Below the pieces are notes generated by a model. The model was given only the letters and a program-made list of their open reading frames with translations, made no database searches and was not told the DNA's origin. This document shows positions 7,751-51,468 of a stretch of 64,000 nt of DNA, in pieces; positions within the stretch are counted from its first letter, which is position 1; every line of letters starts with the position of its first letter. The stretch spans positions 302,312,001 through 302,376,000 of the forward strand of contig OZ024741.1 of assembly GCA_964016885.1 (NCBI GenBank), written 5' to 3'. This DNA is from Eledone cirrhosa. Taxonomy: Eukaryota. The translations under genes were made by a program, and so were the position numbers.

Positions 7751-7992
7751 TTATTATTATTATTATATATATATATATATATATATATATATAATGTGTA
7801 TATATATATATATATAATGTGTATATATATATATATATATATATATATATATATACGTTATTCCGGGTTGAATCGGAGGTAACCACAGTAAGTAAGGTAC
7901 TCAATACATAGCAGAGTATAACAGTTTTAATATAGATGAGATTCTACAGGACTAGAACTGTTTCATTCATTAGAAATCATCAGGAATCTGAT

Positions 7993-8041
7993 GATTCCTG
8001 ATGATTTCTAATGAATGAAACAGTTCTAGTCCTGTAGAATC
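7993..8041 (+). ncRNA. Type I hammerhead ribozyme within a perfect ~120-bp palindrome 7931-8050 (mirror copy 7940-7988, minus)
   Basis: gattc CTGATGA tttc-taat-gaat GAAA cag-ttctagtc-ctg TA gaatc. Stem I gattc/gaatc, GUA cleavage triplet. Confidence 0.78.
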
Positions 8042-8387
8042 TCATCTATATATATATATATATATATATATAATGTGTATATATATATATATATATATAT
8101 ATATATATATATATAATTGTTTCTACGTTAGGCACAAGGCCAGCAATTAGCCAGTGCATTACTGGTACTTTATTTCATCGACCCCGTAAGGATGAAAGGC
8201 AAAGTCAACCTCAGCGGGATTTGAACTCAGATCGTAAAGGGACGTAACTATGCTGGAAAGCATGGCGTCCGACCCTCTACCGATACTATATATAATGTAT
8301 ATATATATATATATATAATGTGTGTATGTATATATATATATATAATGTGTGTGTATATATATATATATATATATATATATAATGTGT

Positions 8388-9056
8388 ATCATCATCATCA
8401 CCGTTTTACGTCCGTGCTTCCACACTAGCATGGGTTAGACGGGTTGTCCTGTTATGGGCAATGTCCGGTCGGCTGACCATGCCTTGCTCATACAGGAACG
8501 GATTCTGATTGATTCCTACAGCTGGATGCCCTGCCTAACACCAACCTCATTTACAGTGAGTGCTGGGTGCTTTTTTCCGTGGCGCCTACACGTCCACTTT
8601 ACAGTGTGGACTGGGTGCTTTTTTGTAGTGGGAGGGTGTGGGGGCATATTGTCTATATGATTCAGCTTCGGCTTGTACCCGTGGGGGGTTGGGTCTTCTG
8701 TATTACTGCATGACACCAGAGGTCACGGTCGTGTGTCATCGCCTTTGAGCGGTGTAATTGGGTATGGTCGGCTTTTATCACCTCATCCCAGGTCTTCTTG
8801 GGTCTCCCAACTCCGCGGTTTCCATCGACTTCTACTGTTCTGCACCTTTTTATGCAGCTGTCATCCTTCATACGCATCACATGTCCATACCAGTGCAACG
8901 GCCTCTCCTGCACACAGCATTTGATTCCTCTTATGCTCAGTCTCTCTCTCAATTCATTTATGCTTTGCCGTTTGCATATATTACTGTTACACATCCATTG
9001 GAGCATGCAGGCTTCGTTTCTTTCTAATCTACGCAAGTCTTCCACAGGTCTCACTG
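8388..9056 (-). mobile_element. RTE LINE 3' fragment plus SINE-like tail
   Basis: EDLRRLERNEACMLQWMC...LHWYGHVMRM...GRPKKTW, followed by the (ATG)n tail module. Confidence 0.85.
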
Positions 9057-46600: not shown

Positions 46601-49600
46601 TGGTATCAAAAGGTTTTAAATTCTTCACTTTCAGTGAGATCAAATGACCTTTCCATTTTTAAGATTAGTAGGTTTTGTCTGTTATTTCTCACTTCTTCAC
46701 TCTTTATAAACACTAGAGTGCAAGTCAGCTCTAGAATTAGTTATTATTATCTCTGCTTAATATAGAAGACAAGTGTGTGTGACTTGGTCATGGAAACTAA
46801 GTTGTAGTCTTGTTGATTTAGTAAAAGTAATTTTATTTTGAATGCAGAAGTGTAAACAGTTGCCTAAAGAGTTTTTGAGATGCACCTTTATGTTTCTTTT
46901 ATTATCATGGGAAGAACAAACACTCAAACCAAATAAATATATGTAAATACAATTCCTTTGAAGATGTTTAAATTTGCCAATGAAGTTATACTTAATAATT
47001 AATTAAATTTCAATTTTGGCTTGCTATAGTTAAGACACTTTCTAATGAAAATGAATAAGAAATAAAATTTGAAAATATACTTGCCACAATGCAGATAGCT
47101 AAAATTATAGTTGATAACTATAAATAATAGTTAAATAAATTGGGTAAAGAATCCCCAGAGATGGAATCCACTCGTTTCTCTTTCCTGGAGTACTTAATCC
47201 AATTCGACTATTATTATAGTTATCTGCATTGTAGTGACTATATTTTCAAATTTTTTAATGCTTCTTAAGTCAACCAATCTCAGATAAAAAATATTTTCCC
47301 CCTATGTATTTTGAACATTGTGTAACAGAACCAGGTTGCTTAATTTTTACCTGTTGTCATCAATGTAATTGTTCAGTAGTTTTTTTCACATTTTAGTTTT
47401 AATGTAATTCTGAAATAAGTATATTTATTTATATACATTAGTTTAAAAGCATCTGCCATTGTTGTGTAATTAAAATTTATATAATCAAGAATCAGTTTTG
47501 ATTCTGTATACTGTAGTAGGTAGATAAAACGAACAAAATTCTATGTAATGTTGAAAATAATGCAGAGATAAAAGTAAAAATTTTAAATTTTAATTTAATG
47601 TATTTTGAATCAATCCCTGATATTAAATGTGTATGGTGTAATCACATGTTATATCATTGATGCATTTATATACAAATATTTGCCAAGATTTGATTCTATA
47701 TACAAATATATTTTTTGTGTAGTATTCCTGACCTGCTTGGCTGCATTTTTTAGCTATCCTGGTCACCAATTATCTTTTTCAAGTTAATTATATATAATTA
47801 CTTTCTTTCTATTGATATTTATAGAAGAAATTTCCCATTTACTTCTGAAAGCCATTAAAATGTCTGTCACACAAGATAAAATGTTCATCTTAAGAATGTC
47901 AAATTACAATAGGAACAAAAACATTTGCCTGTGTTTTAATTGCAGGGGGTAAAATTATGTGTTGGTAGTTACCACAAAGCCTCTGAGATTTGTAGTTTGT
48001 CCAGGTTCTTTATGAACTGAAATTCATTAAAAATTATAAATAAAAAAAACACTTGCATTTCTCCTATATTCATCACGGTTGAATATAACTTATTGTGAAG
48101 TTTTATTCTCTAATTAACTTTTTTCAAGTTAGTTAAAACATCTACTTATCATTTACTAAGGTCTTATTCTAAAATCAAATATTTAAATGAAATGATGCAC
48201 ATATGTAAAAATAATACATTAAAAAATAAAAATTTTAAAAAAACCGAAGGAAAACAACAAACACTTTGTCTTTGATAATTTATATAAGTAATATTTTGGT
48301 TTGGGCTGAGTAGTGGTGGATTGGCAGAATTGGTAGAGCATTGGATAAAATGTCATTGCAGCATTTGTTTTGGCTCTTTTATATTCTGTGTTCAAATCCC
48401 ACTGAGGTTAACTTTAGTCTTCTTCCTTCTGGAGTTGATAAAATAATGTACCAGTCAAGTACTGGGGTTGATTTAATCAACTTTTGCCCTTCCCATAGAA
48501 ATTGAATGTCTTTTTATATATAACTTTTAGTTTAATATCATTATTTGGTTCTTTGGTTTATTCTATTGTAAGCATTTAGACCAGATCCTAGTTCCTTCTC
48601 TGTTCGTGTTTTTCCTCCAGAAATTGACCTGCAGATATTCAGGCTGAGCACCAGTTGCATTATCCCTTTTGATACAAACCTGCCTGAAACTGCTCTTGGT
48701 TCTATGGTATAAAACTGCCAGTTTTAAAGTATTTATACTTTTATTAAAATCTTCCAACATAATTTTAACTCTTACCATCCTGAAATTGCATTAGCTAGAT
48801 ATTTTAAAAAGTAAAAAAAAAACACTATGACTGCATCACATAAAAAAAGTTGTTCAAATACTGCACATTTTTTACAATGATCTGTGCACTAATTAAGATA
48901 CTATAAGTATTTGAATTACCAAGTTCGTTTTTAAATTAATTTGTGATAAATCATTACAGATTTCTAAAAGTTTAGGAATTTTTATAACTAAATTATGTTC
49001 CAAACATCAGCTTCCCAATGAAAAAATTAGTTATTTTACTAAATCCCTTTAATTTTATTTTTATCTTTATTTTCACAATTAATTGAAACACATTGGCACA
49101 GTGTATTTGATTAGAAATTTGGTAACGAAAGATTTAACTTCACTAGACTAGGAGGACCTGCGAATGCCATGTCACAGTTCCTTTTATTCTTGACTACTTT
49201 TATAAATAAGAAAACATTTCTAAGCAGTGTATCTTAAAAATGATTAACCTTGTAAAATATAAAGGCTAATTGATAGAAGTGTGTGTGTGTTCATATGTGT
49301 TTCAAAGGTGATAATGGATAAACCCAGCTCTATTCCCCAAGTGGCCATGAAAAATAAAATATTCCAATATGCATTCTATCTTTCTCTCTTTCACACACAT
49401 ACACACAATTTTTTTTAGACATTTTTTTTTTCAAATAATTCTATACTAGAAAACCAAAAGGTTGCTCAATTATTATCTACTTTCCCATGTCACTCTTATG
49501 TACTGTAGTATTGTTGTTGCTAATAGTTTTCCCTCCCAATTGTTCCTCCTCTTCATGGCAGCTTAGACTTTTGAATTAATTGCCATGGTAATGCAATTTT

Positions 49601-51131
49601 TCTGCCATCATGGCAGATTGGTATTTTTAAACGAATTTTTTTTTTTTCATGAAATATTTTCCATGGGTGTATATATTTTGGTTTTCAAACTGTTACATTT
49701 GATTCAAGAAGCACATTTGTTAACTGTCTTGTTAACATTAAAGGATTAATTTTTTTTTTTTTGTAATTACTATTGAATCTATACCAGCAACAGCATCAAA
49801 TCCTTATCATAAAACGAAAATGTTCAATAATTGTTGAAATATACATGTTCCTGGAATTTCTCTGATTCCAGGCTATACTGAATTATATGCAGATGATGAT
49901 GAGGTTTATGTTTAAATGGTTTTCATTTTTAAGTAATAAGTAAAATTTAACTTTTTAGAGGTTTGTGGAGAGAAAAAAACTATGTTGAATATATTTTATT
50001 CGCTGTGTCTCTCCTGGCAATGAATTATATTTAGGTTTCAAGTGAAGTTGCTACAACGTTTCTTTAAATTGTTTGTAGCTTATATTCCTTGCTCTCTTAC
50101 TATTTTCTCTCTATCTGTTCTTCAAAGTATCTGGTTTTAAATTACCACTATTGATACTTTATAATCAATCATGCAAAATAAACCAAACGTTAGATATATC
50201 TAAATTTCGCAGCTGATTGGAATTTGTTTTGGCCATTTCGATATATTTAATATATATATATATATATATATATATAAAGCCTTTTTTGTGCTATGGGCTT
50301 TTTTTTTTTTTTTTTTTATATAGGGCAAAAACCATTTTAGGTTAATTGTTAAAAACAATAGAGGAATATTACATTTTTAGGCTGATTTATTGCCCATGTA
50401 GTGTTTTTGGCTACATTATCCAATCTGATATATAGGCCTGGCAGTGCTGTAAGGGTTAAAACACTTGAATCCAAAAAGCTGTATATATCATGAGTTTTAA
50501 TTTTTATTTTAAGATAAAATTCATTTATATTTACACAATTTTCTTTATTTTAAAAAAATATTTAATTTTTTTTTAATTTGTTAAATCTATTTAACCTTTT
50601 TTTAGTCAATGTAAAGCTGTTACTACTGAGTTTTTTTCCTGTATGAATGTACAGTATATATAATTCCAGATCAACATCTCTTGATCAGGTGGAGTTACAA
50701 TTTGGGAGTTAAAACTCCCAAACTGTTGTGATTGTACTGAATTGATATTTATTTTGATTATTATCCCCCCAAGCTCTTCAATGATAAGTAAATAACTGTT
50801 TATTAATTTTGTTACAAACACCACTTTTTAGTAGATGCAGTAATTATTACAATCCATTAATGAAAAGAAGAAAAAAAGATTAATTAAAAAATTAAATGCG
50901 CGTGCTCACTGACACACATGCTCATCATGTCTATATTTTATACACACAACTAATGTATATATATATATATATATATATATATATATACACATATGTATAT
51001 ATGTGTATATATATATATATATATATATATATATATATGTGTATATATATATATATATATATATATATATATATACATATGTATGTATGTGTGTATATAT
51101 ATGTGTGTGTATATATATATATGTGTGTGTA

Positions 51132-51468
51132 ACAGTTATAGGATCCTTGTCAAACCCTGTTACTATTAACTTCAATAAAACTGAAACTGATGTTTCCTTA
51201 TGGTCCAACATTGGTGAACAGTTCATTTGCCTGCTAAGGACTCATCTAGTTTAAATTCCATTGAAAATAATTGTGACATGGTTTGACAAGGATTCTATAA
51301 CTGTAAAGAATATATGAATTAACTCCATATTCTTTATATTGAGTGCTATTCACTTTGACATATGAAATATATATATATATATATATATATATATATATAT
51401 ATATATATATATTTGTCAAAGTGAATAGCACTCAATATAATGAATATAGAGTTAATTCATATATTCTT
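51132..51468. repeat. Compound inverted repeats (51132-51304 diverged; 51306-51360 / 51414-51468 around (TA)n), probable Penelope-like remnant
   Basis: Arms are visible by eye. The bulged-hairpin motif occurs at 51322-51344 (+) and 51430-51452 (-). Confidence 0.6.

Follow-up and report, generated by a model that had tools for sequence, protein, structure and literature searches.

The hairpin considered here occurs at 11 sites in a 64,000-nt stretch of Eledone cirrhosa DNA (contig OZ024741.1, positions 302,312,001 to 302,376,000, forward strand; this whole stretch is called the window), each site lying in a short repeat amid (TA)n runs, often as a head-to-head inverted pair, and the repeats are assigned below to Penelope-like elements (PLEs). 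An earlier reading of the letters alone (the sequence-only reading) had described it as a covarying bulged hairpin shared downstream of hammerhead ribozymes, and had proposed a signal for reverse transcriptase (RT) recognition or priming, for ligation or circularisation, or for RNA protection. All 11 strings were present where that reading had placed them, in coordinate and in strand, and scanning the window with the pattern RCTC-stem(>=3 bp)-TH-GAGY returned exactly these 11. As the sites at 17284 and 20722 are duplicates, and likewise those at 22722 and 23313, 9 families stand behind the 11 sites. When the outer pair was also required, 9 matches were found in the window as against a mean of 1.25 and a maximum of 5 in 100 shuffles of it, a comparison with random DNA which the sequence-only reading had itself suggested and which came out in favour of the motif. 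The hairpin is a real, clade-wide and apparently undescribed motif. In the following, copy 1 and copy 2 denote the first and the second hairpin in element sense; a short end of an insertion lies at about -6 from copy 1, and a long end at about -6 from copy 2.

In the left part of the window, copy 1 of family F5 (7899..7917, minus strand) lies 27 nt downstream of the cut of a type I hammerhead (7940..7988, minus strand; core from 7983, cut after 7945), with the long end at 7856 and an inverted twin arm that is short-ended at about 8046. Family F12 contributes two near-identical duplicates of copy 1 (17284..17317 and 20722..20755, both minus strand) with decayed-core hammerheads at about 17365-17413 and about 20803-20851, the first of them adjoining an assembly gap. 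The sequence at about 13380-13936 recurs at 17670-18183 and that at 17160-17470 recurs at 20599-20910, with a gap of 200 N between, and these repeats within 13380-21399 are probably an assembly duplication. A non-coding tandem of about 2.8 units of about 590 nt follows (22215..23890, minus strand), in which each unit carries a U3-A8 hammerhead and both hairpin copies and which ends, on its 3' side, 5-8 nt before the next copy 1. Its copies 1 (22722..22782, with a long insert, and 23313..23373, both minus strand) have an A.C outer pair; its copies 2 lie at 22610..22626 and 23192..23208, both absent from the list of the sequence-only reading, and at 23782..23798, which varies by one base (all minus strand). 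Family F2 is represented by a solo 3' pseudo-long terminal repeat (24587..24932, plus strand; hammerhead core at about 24680-24702, long end at 24932) with a full-length relative in locus L077, and its copy 1 (24777..24848, plus strand) has a long folded insert. Head-to-head pairs were found for family F8 (27323..28167; short end of the inverted arm at 27323, hammerhead of the direct arm at 27993-28047, long end at 28167; copy 1 at 28075..28114, plus strand), family F1 (28241..28615; short end at 28241, 8 nt before copy 1, long end at 28615, a hammerhead in each arm; copy 1 at 28534..28553, plus strand) and family F9 (34424..34820; long end at 34424, short end at 34820, a hammerhead in each arm; copy 1 at 34481..34505, minus strand). 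A decayed pair belongs to family F3 (34898..35108; hammerhead reduced to its 3' half, long end at 35108; copy 1 at 35037..35060, plus strand). The weakest of the 11 sites is the hairpin at 51430..51452 (minus strand) in an old low-copy repeat, for which neither a hammerhead nor a tie to an open reading frame (ORF) was seen and which has a decayed inverted twin at 51322..51344 (plus strand). The window also holds motif copies beyond the 11, namely, besides the copies 2, a decayed copy 1 that has lost its left half (7641..7661, plus strand) inside an F12-related inverted pair at 6458-7763, and a decayed copy 1 of a further Hydra family (35692..35728, minus strand), whose complete 5' untranslated region (UTR) and ORF start are found in L284. 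TA runs make up 22% of the window. PLE families are nested in one another's (TA)n flanks, which leads to dense clusters at 7856-35108 of the window as well as around L077 and L365.

With a descriptor of our own, hammerheads were called 27-85 nt upstream of the hairpin at 8 of the 11 window sites, two of them with a decayed core, and at many metagenome loci, several being U3-A8 variants; Rfam models scored none of the hammerheads called in this way. The placement tens of nucleotides 3' of the cleavage site, as claimed earlier, therefore holds for these 8 sites, but no hammerhead was called by the descriptor at 24777, 35037 and 51430. The wider claim that the hairpin is shared downstream of hammerheads describes the same 8 sites, but the link is loose, as hammerhead-bearing PLEs of other clades in the genome searched (see below) are without the motif and no canonical hammerhead was seen in a hairpin-bearing family (F7, see below). 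The hairpin is not a part of the hammerhead, as it lacks the CUGANGA/GAAA core and lies beyond the cut.

In a 3.0-Gb genome (G000), a strict motif pattern gave 50,834 matches as compared with 1,283 for the control and a second one 18,591 as compared with 180, counts that take in some unrelated repeats such as a long interspersed element (LINE) match among the 50,834-count loci; the genome search proposed by the sequence-only reading thus yielded far more than the control. Among possible bulges, only TT, TC and TA exceeded the shuffles (66 vs 25, 18 and 21 in three shuffles of 760 kb chosen by coordinate). None of the Rfam covariance models matched over the motif at gathering score, and in one listing of the window, comprising the best 150 of 249 weak matches, nearly all were microsatellite and none lay over the motif at gathering score. 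A covariance model built for the motif has low information and misses long-loop copies.

In the conserved core, RCTC-Y and R enclose an insert of variable length (6-71 nt); the 2-nt bulge TH and GAGY come next, and the 3' flank RC(T) is conserved as well. Pairing was counted in 48 rows without any pairing filter, the rows taking in 3 mis-picked ones and 1 duplicate: the outer pair was Watson-Crick in 45 (G-C and U-A; A-U in G000), the first pair of the inner stem (stem B) in 44 as against 28 after shuffling, and pairs 2 and 3 in 28 and 24 as against 17 and 12. G000 families agree with this pattern. The covariation score of a 25-row alignment was reached by none of 500 shuffles, and on an RT tree of 24 rows (drawn without L326, L382 and near-identical copies) there were seven switches of the first inner pair from C-G to U-A or back and four changes of the outer pair, every one of them on both sides of the pair. 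Of the structural features claimed earlier, basal covariation of A-U with G-C is thus borne out by the outer pair except for the A.C pairs at 22722 and 23313, the changing yet paired stem B by a near-universal first pair, which in other animals is often the only one, and the invariant U-first bulge of 2 nt becomes a strong preference: a pattern with a non-T bulge gave 3,728 matches in G000 as against 800 in the control, by eye mainly decayed copies and a CT-bulge family, and the family in L101 has a 1-nt U bulge. Variant motifs at L101, L103, L105, L125, L206, L210, L323 and L357 comprise this 1-nt bulge, a GTTC/GAAC stem, a TCTC start, a CT bulge and a U-A outer pair; the visible ends at these loci still lie directly 5' of the motif. 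In stem B, G.U outnumbered A.C on the sense strand (48 vs 18 copies, 10 vs 5 families; 4 mis-anchored clusters included, 101 singletons dropped), which would modestly favour RNA or sense-strand DNA as the folded species. In all motif copies the right half with its flank, GAG-YR-CT(C), is near-palindromic and echoes the left half RCTC, and it could serve as a protein contact, for alternative pairing or as a dimerisation site. At L093 (G000:C1:14237000-14246900) a minisatellite consists of units of about 58 nt made up of the F3 hairpin and its flanks.

The host elements were recognised from relatives of the 24777 repeat which run into an ORF of 927 aa. The complete element at L077 consists of an inverted arm, hammerhead, hairpin, ORF, hammerhead, hairpin and end. 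The L076 and L077 proteins contain RVRWK and SDKT (DKT instead of DKG), R31 and W32 are invariant in 20 N-termini, and the proteins of L075-L078 and 22 metagenome ORFs share a CxCX5C linker, the absence of CCHH, and CxxC and CxH around the conserved E and N of the C-terminal endonuclease. RWK, DKT, the CxCX5C linker and CxxC/CxH around E and N are the marks of the Hydra clade, together with a hammerhead, (TA)n targets, an inverted 5' arm, a one-sided tail and a length generally below 3 kb (Craig et al., 2021, PMC8557442; statements from this and the other papers cited refer to the sections covered). Insertion in (TA)n, the inverted 5' arm and a tail at one end were all seen in the window and G000 elements; the L077 unit measures about 3.3 kb owing to a long linker, and metagenome ORFs have about 700 aa. 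Neptune had been considered as the host clade and was dropped in favour of Hydra on the definitions of Craig et al. (2021, PMC8557442). On these sequence characters, the hosts of the motif are Hydra-clade PLEs inserted in (TA)n. The RT trees hold no named Hydra reference, the named consensus sequences having been compared in the supplement of Craig et al. (2021) only. The endonuclease of protein P0001 gave no Pfam match, and a YIG motif was seen by eye. The predicted structure of a metagenome Hydra protein (predicted local distance difference test score 86.9) had telomerase RTs as its four best structural matches. Besides F2, four window families could be tied to Hydra ORFs or RTs, namely F8 (ORF in L373), F1 (ORF in L211), F9 (RT in L364 and L387) and F3 (ORF in L365); the families at 7899, 17284/20722 and 51430 showed no ORF tie. 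A protein search led to one relative, a search of viral contigs returned nothing, and an endonuclease-first scan of loci was uninformative owing to short ends and nested insertions.

Full-length elements carry the hairpin twice, with both copies between hammerhead and ATG, as observed for L077, L139, L173 and L211. We then anchored on protein alone: 78 Hydra loci from metagenome contigs had RTs 36-44% identical to that of L077, and 20 of the 29 5'UTR groups formed from them contained two motif copies, about 100 nt and about 40 nt before the ATG; of the remaining nine, eight lack part of the region because of a contig end or 5' truncation, and one has the right half only. Copy 2 starts 31-74 nt before the ATG. 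The two-copy pattern identified 1,158 full leaders in G000 (4 in the control), including the window families F3, F8 and F9. The motif is kept twice per element across RTs that are about 40% identical and whose flanks do not align. Among the six Hydra consensus sequences of Craig et al. (2021), the hairpin is clear in three (coral Hydra-2_Amil, and Hydra-1_Ajap and Hydra-2_Ajap), that of sea cucumber Hydra-1_Ajap having it twice (File S7); the copepod one is degenerate, and none was seen in two whose 3' ends halt soon after the hammerhead. The motif was not seen in 3' regions of Neptune-, Nematis- and Poseidon-type elements of G000 (clade names assigned by eye from their motifs), and at 30 loci picked for endonucleases of other clades the best covariance-model matches, where read, were neighbouring insertions. 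Among the matches to twelve 8-mers and five longer strings in the Naiad and Chlamys consensus files, the hairpin appeared only in Hydra records and in Naiad_Mmer. The single good match in the 3' UTR of Naiad_Mmer lies about 140 nt past the stop codon, has a 6-bp inner stem, and may be due to chance, convergence or shared ancestry.

The positions of the insertion ends connect the two copies to integration. Read with the hammerhead first, many copies halt at (TA)n directly before the motif. A first mapping of 21 families gave 252 TA junctions, of which 136 were located immediately 5' of the motif and 105 well past it, with 10 far upstream and 1 within it; as the distances of the second group are inflated by TA sequence in the queries, mapping on leaders was used instead. 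There, 208 of 218 TA junctions fell in the 30 nt immediately 5' of a copy, 97 at copy 1 and 111 at copy 2, windows which together make up about 30% of the references. Overlap with positions -7..-5 was seen for 163 of these 208 junction intervals, and the offset was held over copy spacings of 55-165 nt. Three more families behaved likewise (14 of 15 in the first, 45 of 48 in the second and, for F7, 31 ends that precede copy 2, the list of 'other' ends of F7 being an artefact of TA sequence in the queries), and 12 of 13 metagenome 3' ends comparable by eye lie 2-12 nt before a copy. Since ends lie just 5' of either copy, the tail corresponds to the interval from copy 1 to copy 2. Head-to-head pairs combined one short and one long end in 90 of 99 cases, in 54 of 56 in a separate count, and in 33 of 37 among loci not chosen by the motif (P 5e-7). 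Long copies begin at scattered 5' positions and not at the motif, except for two metagenome cases (L290 and L345). A Nematis-like hammerhead family without the motif (L117, L145, L160, L163) has two ends about 60 nt apart, and other clades may therefore have a twin signal of their own.

The first base copied in target-primed reverse transcription is the one that becomes the 3' end of the insertion. The recognition or priming role among the sequence-only proposals is favoured because a short and constant distance separates the ends from the hairpin on its 5' side; the epsilon-like detail, priming within the structure, did not hold, with ends mapping outside the hairpin and only 1 of the 252 junctions inside. 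From the conserved doubling in the 5' leader, the ends about 6 nt 5' of a copy, the one-of-each end rule and the paired changes, the hairpin is most likely a signal of Hydra-clade PLEs at which each copy docks the RT and so fixes the start of cDNA synthesis (probability about 0.65). Binding of the RT, the RNA fold in vivo and the participation of two proteins are what we infer from these observations. The tandem transcript would fold both hairpins, which the Hydra protein, probably as two molecules, would bind; its putative GIY-YIG domain would nick both strands of the (TA)n target, and each 3'-OH may prime cDNA on the AU-rich stretch just 5' of one hairpin, about 6 nt upstream. With a start at this place the docking hairpin would not be copied. 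One start per target strand, both on the same RNA, and head-to-head joining of the two cDNAs would give an inverted arm and a tail at one end only, and non-coding tandems with both copies would be mobilised in trans. A Poseidon PLE (PAc) offers precedent for several of these steps: both strands of AT-rich targets are cut and extended, cDNA synthesis begins within the RNA at two sites, which delimit the tail, a portion of RNA 3' to the first of them is required (an unmapped element within +20..+172), and hammerhead cleavage is dispensable (Frangieh et al., 2024, PMC11167929). The complete scheme, in which two RTs on the two hairpin copies of one RNA each copy into one strand of the double-cut (TA)n from about 6 nt upstream, accounting for tail, inverted arm and tandem capture, with other PLE clades using twin signals of their own, is put forward tentatively and has a little less than an even chance of being right.

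Several observations weigh against docking of the RT. At several sites the minimum-energy structure differs from the bulged hairpin, its folding energies are small and the antisense strand often folds equally well or better, so a bound protein would have to stabilise it; stem B is weak past the first pair, with the second one formed in 28 of 48 rows and often one pair only in other animals. The G.U counts, which include mis-anchored rows, give modest evidence for the strand, the shuffles disregard relatedness, and strongly supported branches hold only 3 independent contrasts (p 0.25). The right half GAG-YR-CT comes close to a palindrome, which might suit a DNA site. As to the ends, junctions are blurred by TA microhomology and six families supply most of them, 173 of 425 matches in the 21-family mapping were excluded as they stopped elsewhere than at a TA run, and the F7 sample used the copy-2 site only. 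Finally, start sites were found alike on both strands in PAc, with initiation in an AC-rich stem-loop and in another clade (Frangieh et al., 2024, PMC11167929).

The alternative that survives best, although we consider it unlikely, is that the motif acts as DNA: in a tandem or circular intermediate, a hairpin or cruciform would be read by the putative GIY-YIG endonuclease, which would cut the DNA about 6 nt to the 5' side of that structure. This would lead to the same fixed offset, and would suit the near-palindromic right half and folding without strand preference; moreover, the Penelope endonuclease of D. virilis needs the tail to cut plasmids (as given in Frangieh et al., 2024, PMC11167929), and the tail has been ascribed to endonuclease resolution (Craig et al., 2021, PMC8557442). 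However, spacers of 6-71 nt with compensatory pairs require a single strand, the sense strand has more G.U than A.C, long copies have scattered 5' starts away from the motif save in L290 and L345, and ends of PLE tails are start sites of the RT on RNA in vitro (Frangieh et al., 2024, PMC11167929). Less probable again is that the hairpin directs cleavage of the RNA about 6 nt upstream, by a host nuclease, an element protein or a ribozyme, with ordinary target-primed reverse transcription from the resulting 3' ends. A fixed offset and a sense-strand fold would likewise follow, but two separately cut RNAs alone would not give short plus long ends in 90 of 99 pairs, no ribozyme family in Rfam matches the motif, and internal initiation on uncut RNA has been shown for a Poseidon PLE (Frangieh et al., 2024, PMC11167929). 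It is improbable that the association with the ends is incidental and that the motif serves the hammerhead product, by ligation or 5'-end protection, or else assists in translating the ORF close by: the distances of 27-85 nt 3' of the cut and, for copy 2, of 31-74 nt before the ATG would fit, but this leaves unexplained why the -6 rule holds for both copies, whose spacing ranges over 55-165 nt, non-coding tandems retain both copies, and hammerhead PLEs of other clades are without the motif. Nor would the ligation and protection roles of the sequence-only reading lead one to expect another copy ahead of the ATG, the -6 rule or insertions with one end of each kind. Functionless shared ancestry or chance in AT-rich repeats is very improbable and already largely refuted by the protein-anchored set. 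The motif is indeed short, members of one family do not count as independent, and about one match per window should arise by chance; but two copies per element persist where RTs are about 40% identical and flanks do not align, and coral and sea-cucumber elements have the motif too, with repeated double changes and positional rules.

Non-coding tandems deserve separate mention. The one at 22215-23890 has in each unit a type I hammerhead, a U3-A8 variant with a very long loop 2, and is retrozyme-like, a probable passenger of Hydra elements. Such tandems retain both hairpin copies and obey the end rule. Family F7 (L405, L431, L225-L254) is an abundant non-coding tandem of about 596 nt with both copies, in which no canonical hammerhead was seen, and in F6, F33, F90 and F22 no hammerhead was found within 170 nt. 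Metazoan non-LTR retrozymes are alike in being non-coding tandems with a type I hammerhead per unit (PMC7761336; PMC7229834; bioRxiv 10.64898/2026.07.22.740005); the window tandem differs in carrying both Hydra hairpins under the same end rule. A 2020 review states that metazoan retrozyme repeats show no conserved motif pointing to a partner (PMC7761336).

With Hydra-clade PLEs as described, the elements found here share protein motifs, hammerhead, (TA)n targets, inverted arm and one-sided tail, but the tails reported are 30-40 bp long with the cause given as unknown, and here they measure 55-165 nt and are bounded by hairpin copies; the main text of that paper gave no match for 'stem-loop' or 'hairpin' (Craig et al., 2021, PMC8557442). 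PAc is alike in its two internal starts that bound the tail, the cutting and extension of both strands, AT-rich targets and a required, unmapped RNA element, and differs in belonging to another clade and in starting inside an AC-rich stem-loop, a comparison made by description only; a duplicated motif, a fixed offset and a one-of-each rule are not described in the sections covered (Frangieh et al., 2024, PMC11167929). No description of the motif was found by full-text searches of the open literature or in the papers covered, including parts of Cervera 2014, PMC7229834, PMC7761336, PMC8969392 and the 2026 retrozyme preprint (subscription papers and Repbase notes lay outside this scope), in agreement with the sequence-only reading, which knew of none.

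RT-bound RNA structures as such are familiar. The hepadnaviral epsilon is a bulged stem-loop which binds the RT, sets the start of DNA synthesis and templates protein-primed synthesis from its bulge; in the Hydra elements the start lies outside the hairpin, the primer is likely target DNA, there are two copies, and no Rfam family matches. The 3' stem-loops of LINEs, short interspersed elements (SINEs) and R2, and the telomerase RNA elements that flank the template, are likewise structures that the RT binds and that place a template where chromosomal DNA can serve as primer. Each LINE insertion contains a copy of the stem-loop, which is located 5' of the start; the Hydra hairpin, by contrast, is located 3' of its proposed start, is missing from the arm that begins there and occurs twice. 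PLEs are the sister group of telomerase RTs, and telomerase RTs head the fold matches of the predicted Hydra protein. Structures that position an RT are of a known kind, and a doubled one 3' of the start which sets both insertion ends was not found in print.

The motif provides a candidate of about 20 nt for how PLEs choose their RNA and acquire tails and inverted ends, with predictions at the level of single bases, namely a start at about -6, a tail length equal to the copy spacing and one end of each kind. An in vitro PLE system has been called for (Craig et al., 2021, PMC8557442), and the binding motif of PAc was left unmapped (Frangieh et al., 2024, PMC11167929). If docking is correct, it would explain the puzzling tails and inverted ends of Hydra PLEs, and if twin priming holds, one rule would yield tail, inverted arm and the capture of non-coding hammerhead tandems. 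The motif may also be used as a marker for Hydra boundaries and for partnering non-autonomous hammerhead tandems and, if portable, would allow an RT to be started at a chosen internal RNA site.

Apart from PLEs, the window contains RT fragments of non-LTR retrotransposons at 2337-2960 and 32345-33406 (RTE-like and CR1/L2-like by eye), and at 41743-41801 a partial tRNA-like match above the Rfam gathering score, which is probably the head of a SINE.

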